A stretch of 64,000 nucleotides of DNA from Escherichia coli (GCF_011045215.1 NZ_CP049201.1); one strand, 5' to 3'. Shown: positions 50,101 to 53,100, counted from the stretch's first letter. A program made the numbers.

Positions 50101-53100
50101 GCTAATTGAGCATTGACATCCGCTATATAATTTATATGATTACATTTTTTCTTACACTCATCATAATTTTCGATAGGATAAATTAATGGCCTTCCTTTGA
50201 TATCTCTCTCAAGCCCAAACCCGTATTTTTTTATTAAAACCATTTCATCCGCAGTCGATTGAAAGGAATAGAAAAATATAATATTTACGATTGTCATTAT
50301 TATGATTTTTTTTATAGCTTGCAGCATTAATATATTTCTCGACTTATTAGTTAATGGAGAAGTGCTTTTTCTAATTCCGCTATTTTTTTCTTAACTGAAT
50401 TGCTTAATATTTCATCATTAATCGAGTCTATCTCACTTTCAATTAATCTTATTTCAAAATATCTTTCTATGTTATATGCATTCTCAAATATTTGATCTTT
50501 TTGTTTAGAGATCAGTTTAGTTGCAATACGGATATGTTCGTCATATGAAACTTCATCCTCTTTGCACGTTGAATATTTATCAGTAGTTGTATAATTCTGT
50601 GACCACATACCACCTTTTTTATTATCCCCATAATACCACTGAATATGAGACATTTCATGACATAAAGTAGCAACATGAGAATCCTTTCCCGTTACTGGAT
50701 TTTTTTGCCATCTCTATACTCAAATTTTGCGCCTATGTTAATTATATAGGGCATATCCTTACTTGGGCTGACGAATGCTGCAAATTCATTACAACCTGTA
50801 TAATTTATAAAACTGCTCATTGTTAAATCATTAGCTATAATCATTAATCTTCTCACACCATCCATCATAAGAAATCTAGCATTCATGCGCCTAACTGTAT
50901 TATGTCCATATTTTCTTATATTAACTTCCTTATTTCCTTTAACACCAAAGATCTTACTGAAATCATATTCCTCCTGTGCTCCCCATCTCAAAAGATCATC
51001 TGCTCTTTTTATCAAAACCAACTTTTGTGCCTTACGAACCTTATCAATCATTATTTTAAAATGATCAGTTATTTTTTGCTCTTTCACACATTCTTCTGGC
51101 TCTGGCTTTGGTTGTCCAGAAGTTTGATTATTATCGTCCATAGTGTCCTTCCATTGAGAGAAAATCATCATTCGCAAATAGCAACTAAAAAGCAGCATTA
51201 CTTGACCTTTCCCTGCATAACAATATTTATAAAATAATACGTTTTATGATCTCACCTTGGGCTCCCAACAAGATAATTTCAGTTTTAAAGACTTTCACGA
51301 AAAAATATAGAAATACCTCACCACCCTTCACTTACCAATTAATCTCACAGGAAATCCAACTTCCTTACCACAAATACAATCCCAAGTAACATTTCCCAAA
51401 ATTTTTGATACTTTAGGCTGCAATGGCATTATTGACATTATAAATTTATCAAGTTCTTCGCTATATTTAATTCCCTTTATATTTCTTATTATTGATATTC
51501 TAGCAGTAAAGATAGCCGTCTCTCCATCTACACTAAAAGTGTAATTACAATTTTTTGTAATCTCATCAAATTCAACCGATAACAAATCAATATTATGGTT
51601 TGTAAACACTATGCCCATTCCATACCTCCTTAAATTCCTGTTCAGTCATCAGATATCGACTCCCTTGATATGGATCATATATTATCACATTCCCAGCATC
51701 ATCAACACCCTTAACAAGTACCCAATGTCCTACTTTACTTCCAGAATCCCACATCATTGCTCCCCATGAACCAGTATTACTGAGGGCATATAAACTAGAT
51801 TCGCTCACTGCATTCCCTTCCCAGCCGACATCAAATTTATTAAGCTTGTTTGCCAGCGACGTCATAGATGTTAATTCTGTTCCAATTACATTTTGCGTGA
51901 CAAAAATATACCTATCCCTAAGCAACATTTCCCCACAGGCCGCTCCACAGCCTGTTAAAGTCAATTGCTTTATTACATTTGAATCTAAAACCTCATCAAA
52001 TACTGTCCAATTGCCACCAGCACCACCTTCTAAAACTACCGGCTCTACAAATACTTTCCCAGAGATATTTTCTTCTGGTATTTTTGCGGGTATCATAAAG
52101 CCCCATAAAAAGCTGGAAAAATGCTCCAGAGCAATCTGATCACCATTATTTGCATCCATTATCATTTTTTTAAGTGCATCCCATGCTTGCCCATTTATCA
52201 ATGAATCACTAATATTAAATAAAGCCTGTTCTTTTTCGTTTAAATTTATATTTGCCTGTTCACATAACCCATCTTCGCCTATCGGGCAAGCAACCGTTGC
52301 CGTTGCCGTATCTAACAGAGCATCGAATGTAACTAAGGCTAAATCCGCCACACCATGTAAAGTGGTGATTGCTCCATTCCCCATTTGAGTAAGTGTGTTC
52401 TCTCCAAACCATTCTCTAATTTGAGATTTATCTCCTTCAATACCATTCCTGAGAGATTCTCTGATATTCTTTATTGAAAAAAACTCCCCCCATGATTGGT
52501 CAGGATCTTTTATTTGGAATAAATCATTTTTAACCTCAGGTGAAATATCTCCGTCAAAAATATTACCAACAGAGAGGAGATCCTTCAGAAGCAGTAAATC
52601 GTGTATTACTTCAGCAGTCCTTTCATAATTAAAACTTCTATCAATGACAGAAATCATTGGTGATTTTATTTTGGTATATAATTTACCAAGGCAGTTATGG
52701 TTATTAATCCCAACAACTGAACCATGATAAGCAACAGGTTTCCCTTCTATTGTTACAGTCGGACTTCCCGTTAAAATAACACAGTCACCCGTTCCTTGAG
52801 ATGTACCGGATATGACACCTTTACCGGCATTACTTTGAGTTCCAGCAATCACTGAACCAACATTTAAAGCTCTGCATCCACGCGCCCATACCGTTGAACT
52901 GTACTGTCTTTCACTATCTAAAGTCTGGTAACTGTCAAAAGGAACCTTGTAACCTCCTACTTCACATACATCTGGTGAAGTACACACGACTCTAAATCTA
53001 GATTCACCATCCCCGATATGATAGTTACCCATAATATTTTTTCCCTATACATTCAGGAATAATACAACTCAGCACTCCTTCTTTCATTCCAAAAAAATCA

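Follow-up and report, generated by a model that had tools for sequence, protein, structure and literature searches.

In a 64,000-nt stretch of the Escherichia coli genome GCF_011045215.1 (NZ_CP049201.1; hereafter, the window), a small open reading frame (ORF) overlaps the 3′ end of a gene for a polymorphic toxin, raising the question of whether it encodes the protein that protects the toxin-producing cell, as had been proposed in a first-pass annotation made from the sequence alone. Our analysis indicates that the ORF, located at positions 51328..51618, is almost certainly cpi1, the cognate immunity gene of Cpe1, a type VI secretion system (T6SS) effector encoded directly upstream. The extent of the ORF (96 codons, overlapping the end of the effector gene) stands as initially described, and its strand, which had been left unspecified, is the minus strand. 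It should be noted that the finding itself is already known, including the mechanism and the crystal structure, and that it adds no new knowledge about Cpi1.

The ORF starts with ATG and encodes a protein of 96 amino acids, which we annotate, based on the ORF list and the Protein Data Bank (PDB) match, as the N76 allele of the cytoplasmic immunity protein Cpi1. In a PDB sequence search, this protein was matched over its full length by chain C (“Cpi1”) of the entry 9L5U, with 95 of the 96 residues identical (E = 2.6e-61); the crystal entry includes the full 1–96 chain. The sole difference is at position 76, which is asparagine in the window and glycine in the crystallized protein. All four residues known to contact the toxin (I47, M61, M64, and K72) are present, and clustering at 90% groups the window protein with CPI1_ECOU5 (“Cysteine protease immunity protein 1”) of UniProt. 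Furthermore, the names cpe1 and cpi1 are already in use in the RefSeq records of E. coli strains S88, N39, and N56. The profile libraries, in contrast to the named PDB, UniProt, and RefSeq records, are silent: a Pfam scan of the 96-aa protein yielded zero matches even at E ≤ 10, and an NCBIfam scan yielded none to Cpi1 at E ≤ 0.01, the latter library containing no model for either Cpi1 or Cpe1. These missing matches reflect absent models rather than an absent family, and they explain why the first-pass annotation recognized no known immunity family, a statement that is accurate for the Pfam and NCBIfam hidden Markov models and outdated with regard to the PDB, UniProt, and some of the RefSeq records. 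The sequence, the position 3′ of a gene for a papain-like cysteine protease (PLCP) toxin, the contact residues, the exosite of the partner toxin, and the lack of an export signal are all as in Cpi1, so that, by every feature testable in silico, the ORF product belongs with Cpi1 as a family.

The immunity function has been established experimentally for the Cpe1–Cpi1 pair of E. coli ATCC 11775, characterized by Song et al. (PLoS Biol 2025, PMC12136450). Cpe1 is a T6SS-delivered PLCP with two substrates in the cytoplasm of the target cell, GyrB and ParE, both cut at a double-glycine motif of their ATPase domains, and Cpi1 blocks this cleavage. Expression of Cpe1tox is toxic to E. coli in a Cys362-dependent manner, whereas co-expressed Cpi1 restores growth and normal morphology; Cpi1 is also pulled down with Cpe1tox and protects in competition assays. 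In the complex solved at 1.87 Å, Cpi1 covers a hydrophobic concave exosite formed by L387, M390, A408, M426, W428, and V434 beside the catalytic pocket, and the pocket itself is open. A quadruple Cpi1 mutant affected in I47, M61, M64, and K72 loses both binding and protection. The dissociation constant is 8.58 nM for Cpi1 versus 343 nM for the ParE ATPase domain, a difference of about 40-fold in favor of Cpi1, which also ousts the ParE ATPase domain when the latter is bound to Cpe1(C362A) (all data from PMC12136450). Given the 95 of 96 identical residues, the published suppression by co-expression, the pull-down, and the protection in competition support the proposal that the small ORF is an immunity gene. 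The prediction that the effector acts in the cytoplasm rather than in the periplasm of the target, which had been drawn from the missing signal peptide, also agrees with the published cleavage of GyrB and ParE in that compartment (PMC12136450).

The upstream partner gene, cpe1 (also known as tsaP; 51593..53032, minus strand), was identified through Pfam and PDB matches as encoding a PAAR-like effector of the T6SS, 479 aa in length, whose C-terminus is formed by a cysteine protease domain of the papain-like (C39) type. Its PAAR-like domain, which loads onto the VgrG tip, spans residues 15–115 (52688..52990, minus strand; Pfam PF13665 Tox-PAAR-like, independent E-value 8.2e-12). The middle region, residues 189–336 (52025..52468, minus strand), is homologous, as judged by phmmer, to the cytoplasm-entry domain plus linker of StbD-CT, the alignment with the PDB chain 8SSK_A extending over residues 189–477 of Cpe1 and 27–316 of the target (E = 4e-82). 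A 2026 preprint describes this homology and proposes that Cpe1 shares with StbD both a YajC-dependent entry and the auto-processing site (bioRxiv 10.64898/2026.05.07.723447). The toxin domain, residues 337–479 (51596..52024, minus strand), is 100% identical to residues 14–156 of 9L5U_A and includes a match to Pfam Peptidase_C39 at residues 352–474 (1.2e-5). The catalytic Cys362 and all six exosite residues (L387, M390, A408, M426, W428, and V434) are present in the window protein, as are H436 and D453, the latter position counted from the printed sequence; judging by their spacing, which matches that of C183, H258, and D275 in StbD, H436 and D453 would be the histidine and the aspartate of the catalytic triad. 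Compared to the RefSeq cpe1 product of E. coli S88, the window protein shows six amino acid differences, none of which is in the toxin domain.

Because the contact residues, the exosite residues, and Cys362 are all present, we have high confidence that the published Cpe1–Cpi1 mechanism transfers to the pair in the window. Cpe1 would be carried on the VgrG spike via its PAAR-like domain and fired into neighboring bacteria, where its action would block the control of DNA topology and chromosome segregation. Cpi1, as a small soluble cytoplasmic protein of the producer and its kin, would bind with nanomolar affinity to the exosite next to, rather than over, the active site of Cpe1 and thereby compete with the substrate. 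The N76 allele in the window probably binds and neutralizes the toxin in the same way as the G76 allele, and we presume that the module is expressed and that a functional T6SS is available to it.

The local gene layout is consistent with this assignment. The cpi1 and cpe1 genes overlap by 26 nt, including the TAA stop codon of the upstream gene, and are read in different frames. On the minus strand, the sequence immediately 5′ of the cpi1 start reads TTTAAGGAGGTATGGA-ATG; by direct reading, it contains a consensus Shine-Dalgarno motif, AAGGAGG (51625..51631, minus strand), which lies within the 3′ end of cpe1, in its last codons, and is spaced by 6 nt from the cpi1 ATG. The arrangement had been described as one of translational coupling, typical of effector–immunity pairs, and the overlap together with the internal Shine-Dalgarno motif fits such coupling, which is suggested by the layout. 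The N-terminus of Cpi1, MGIVFTNHNIDLLSVEFDEITKNC..., displays neither a basic n-region nor a hydrophobic core: the first 8 residues include no lysine or arginine, and 4 of the first 25 are acidic. Within residues 1–30, the maximum Kyte-Doolittle mean over 11 residues is 0.84, compared to 2.88 for the 219-aa ORF two genes downstream. These measures of charge and hydrophobicity confirm the absence of a signal peptide noted in the first-pass annotation.

Cpi1 can be compared with several known systems. The closest is Cpi1 of E. coli ATCC 11775 (9L5U_C, CPI1_ECOU5), which equals the window protein in length, contact residues, location 3′ of cpe1, and associated toxin domain, and differs from it by G76 in place of N76 and in the chromosomal site of its gene. 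More distant is StbI of the contact-dependent growth inhibition (CDI) system of Citrobacter rodentium (deposited as CdiI; PDB 8SSM_C, 95 aa), which is homologous to Cpi1 (E = 3.2e-9), the two being 37% identical across 67 aa. Its partner, StbD-CT, is a homologous C39 peptidase that also cleaves GyrB and ParE, and StbI similarly occupies an exosite, with the catalytic center open; specifically, StbD cleaves GyrB and ParE after Gly101, and StbI inhibits it by exosite binding (bioRxiv 10.64898/2026.05.07.723447). However, StbI is associated with a CdiA-like carrier, whereas Cpi1 is associated with a T6SS PAAR effector, and the two sequences are strongly diverged. A CdiI gene would be expected after a cdiA or CdiA-like gene that carries its toxin as a CdiA-CT, whereas the partner of the small ORF is a PAAR-like effector gene located behind vgrG and a DUF2169 gene. 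Since the partner is a PAAR effector rather than a CdiA-CT, the small ORF represents a T6SS-linked branch of the StbI/CdiI immunity lineage and is not a CdiI.

On the toxin side, TsaP of the extraintestinal pathogenic E. coli (ExPEC) strain RS218 (Lu et al., Microbiol Spectr 2023, PMC10434152) shares with Cpe1 the PAAR/middle/C39 architecture and the gene length, the toxic activity being located in its C-terminal C39 portion. That study does not describe an immunity gene, the word “immunity” occurring once in its text, within a reference title (PMC10434152). More broadly, putative immunity genes were found after most of the 155 T6SS- or CDI-linked PLCP toxin genes in a published survey (PMC12136450). 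It had been suggested that a genuine immunity gene should co-occur with C39-like toxin domains in other genomes; the StbD-CT/StbI pair, the survey of 155 genes, and 335 cpe1–cpi1 segments in E. coli all conform to this expectation. The immunity proteins of colicin DNases, Im7 and Im9, provide an analogy only: they bind beside the active site and block the substrate, the catalytic center not being occluded. Im7 and Im9 have a fold and sequence unrelated to those of Cpi1, and the toxin they inhibit is a nuclease rather than a protease. The comparison was drawn in the StbD preprint (bioRxiv 10.64898/2026.05.07.723447).

The cpe1–cpi1 pair is embedded in what looks like a complete T6SS module. A gene for a 348-aa DUF2169 T6SS accessory protein (53025..54071, minus strand), recognized as an ORF and through the S88 annotation, overlaps the start of cpe1 by 8 nt; it is preceded by vgrG (54178..56160, minus strand), an ORF annotated in S88 as a Vgr family protein, which encodes the 660-aa spike carrying Cpe1, and, upstream of vgrG, by an ORF for a 94-aa stand-alone PAAR protein (56179..56463, minus strand), the counterpart of which carries, in PapM-32-1, O145 RM9872, and 2018-05-2CC, the annotation “type VI secretion system PAAR protein”. 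All five genes (those for PAAR, VgrG, DUF2169, Cpe1, and Cpi1) are full-length open frames in the window. The single VgrG is thus accompanied by two candidate spike tips, namely, the stand-alone PAAR protein and the PAAR-like domain of Cpe1. The module is placed between yncG/ansP and pptA/yddH/nhoA/yddE/narZYWV, and the cpe1/cpi1 region has a G+C content of about 30%, compared to 53% in the flanking nar–yddH genes; for the larger locus, the values are 0.53 for nar–yddH, about 0.30 for the cargo genes, and 0.556 for vgrG. On its pptA side, the low-G+C island is bordered by a transposase fragment (48979..49350, minus strand), which corresponds to the C-terminal part of an ISAs1-family (H-repeat) enzyme.

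The vgrG-DUF2169-cpe1-cpi1 module occurs at two sites of the E. coli chromosome, one between pptA and yncG, as in the window (48979..57620), and the other in the main T6SS cluster near yafV. The latter location is exemplified by S88, in which the module follows the hcp-vgrG of the main T6SS cluster and is 97% identical over window positions 51184–56169; the matches in UTI89 and a number of further ExPEC strains fall at identical record coordinates, the S88 locus being the one examined in detail. Relative to S88, the DUF2169 protein (“DUF2169 family type VI secretion system accessory protein”) shows 3 amino acid differences and VgrG shows 27; the excess in VgrG over the 3–6 differences in DUF2169 and Cpe1 suggests, at the level of sequence, a mosaic or recombinant module. 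Among 5,426 complete E. coli genomes, the cpe1–cpi1 segment was matched in 335, always as a single copy and always on the chromosome. The 9.1-kb island as a whole has no full match in these genomes: only one of the 5,426 covers at least 80% of it (91%), with an IS600 inserted in its vgrG, and in most complete genomes the pptA–yncG site is degraded by deletions or IS600.

How firmly the small ORF can be read as an immunity gene depends on what else it could be. That it is a chance frame, or that its product assists in loading the effector as an adaptor or chaperone, might be argued from the lack of a family match in Pfam and NCBIfam and from the fact that small genes adjacent to effectors are adaptors in some cases, yet we assign virtually no probability to this explanation. 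In 200 mononucleotide shuffles of the region 49351..53032, ATG-initiated ORFs of at least 96 aa numbered 0.115 on average, as opposed to 6 observed, which amounts to an approximately 50-fold lower frequency of such ORFs in the shuffles, and the adaptor role at this locus is already taken by the DUF2169 gene. Above all, a crystal structure of Cpi1 bound to the toxin domain is available, and its immunity function has been tested experimentally (PMC12136450), and the published structure and rescue experiments refute this explanation. A more serious alternative concerns the role of the gene rather than its identity, namely, that cpi1 is mainly defensive against Cpe1-armed neighbors, the island being silent or decaying, instead of providing self-protection for a firing module. 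The distribution of the two genes can be cited in favor of this possibility: cpi1 was matched in 332 of the 5,426 complete genomes (all but one of them, 331, with an identity of at least 99%), compared to 303 for the 5′ two-thirds of cpe1 (297 with at least 80% coverage), and about 9% of the cpi1 carriers lack the full toxin gene, an orphan-immunity pattern. In O145 strains, the pptA–yncG site contains an intact cpi1 next to a 111-aa cpe1 remnant that starts after Cys362 (RM9872, L003:3842-4442; window 51328..52094), and in PapM-32-1, which is 100% identical over cpe1–cpi1, a deletion corresponding to window 53196–55916 removes the DUF2169 gene and most of vgrG. In addition, activation of the T6SS in the published competition assays required deletion of hns (PMC12136450). 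Nevertheless, in the window, the genes for PAAR, VgrG, DUF2169, Cpe1, and Cpi1 are all full length, so that an offensive function is not visibly lost, and the defensive and self-protective roles are compatible, the biochemical mechanism being identical in both. We therefore view a mainly defensive role as possible but doubtful.

No observation contradicts the interpretation of cpi1 as the cognate immunity gene of Cpe1; three aspects of it are provisional. Coupling and co-transcription of cpe1 and cpi1 are proposed from the layout, and the promoter and terminator signals do not rise above the shuffled background: a consensus scan of 50600..52400 detected 12 promoter-like and 2 terminator-like sites, compared to shuffle values of 8.4 ± 2.5 and 0.8 ± 1.0, respectively, with no site convincingly placed as a promoter of cpi1 itself or as a terminator following it. 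The vgrG island is visible in the window, and a working T6SS core would have to lie elsewhere in the genome. Finally, N76 differs from the crystallized G76, and position 76 may border the interface. The last point leads to the suggestion that the G76N substitution alters the affinity or specificity of Cpi1, so that the allele would confer weakened or re-specified immunity. No other residue distinguishes the window protein from the crystallized one, residue 76 is located 4 residues from the contact residue K72, and it adjoins residue 75, which aligns with StbI His75, a listed toxin contact (bioRxiv 10.64898/2026.05.07.723447); furthermore, N76 is the minority allele, found in 79 public contigs, compared to at least 1000 for G76. 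However, there is no compensating change in the toxin, the toxin domain in the window being 100% identical to the crystallized one, and single substitutions of true contact residues did not eliminate immunity in the published work (PMC12136450). N76 also persists beside an intact toxin gene both in the window and in PapM-32-1, a combination that would kill the cell should the toxin be expressed without effective immunity. An altered allele of this kind thus appears very improbable. The broader proposition that N76 and the second site at pptA–yncG together mark an immunity variant that differs in function, namely, in its affinity or its range of cross-protection, within a cassette that is mobile among vgrG islands and frequently persists as an orphan immunity gene once the toxin has decayed, also strikes us as improbable. 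A sorting of the N76 and G76 alleles by chromosomal site was considered and rejected: O145 and 2018-05-2CC carry G76 (WP_000513317.1) at pptA–yncG.

A further gene pair is located 3′ of cpi1. Two minus-strand ORFs, 50692..51198 and 50351..50653, correspond to one 263-aa “peptidase M35” gene in PapM-32-1; they are separated by a frameshift near 50700, where the coding strand has seven adenines (A7) in the window versus eight (A8) in PapM-32-1, and the break falls just before HEMSH, an HExxH motif. The match to Pfam Aspzincin_M35 is weak (independent E-value 0.0046), and a PDB sequence search with the M35-like protein returned no significant match. In an alignment of 19 M35-like homologs, the pattern C-H-E-x-x-H is invariant, an aspartate is near-invariant, and NAYN(I)ERYF is invariant. 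Homologs in Salmonella, Buttiauxella, and other E. coli are all encoded directly 3′ of vgrG, and each is followed by a homolog of the next ORF of the window, 49668..50327 (minus strand; 24–39% identity). The latter encodes a 219-aa protein whose N-terminus resembles a signal peptide (KK, followed by a hydrophobic stretch and STA|DE) and is truncated at the C-terminus relative to its relatives of 266–308 aa; from these sequence features, it is a candidate periplasmic immunity protein. The pair looks like a decayed second cargo module, consisting of a VgrG-linked putative effector with an aspzincin fold and a putative periplasmic immunity protein, and the M35-like gene together with its downstream neighbor may represent an uncharacterized family of T6SS effector–immunity pairs. 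A literature search found no paper tying peptidase M35 or aspzincin to T6SS.

Collectively, these results show that reasoning from the sequence alone, namely, from a small overlapping ORF that follows a polymorphic toxin gene and lacks a signal peptide, recovered a real effector–immunity pair. Because neither Pfam nor NCBIfam has a model for Cpi1, the cpi1 product is labeled “hypothetical protein” in most genomes. The finding that about one in ten of the E. coli genomes that carry cpi1 are devoid of an intact cpe1 bears on which bacteria are protected from Cpe1-armed ExPEC lineages.
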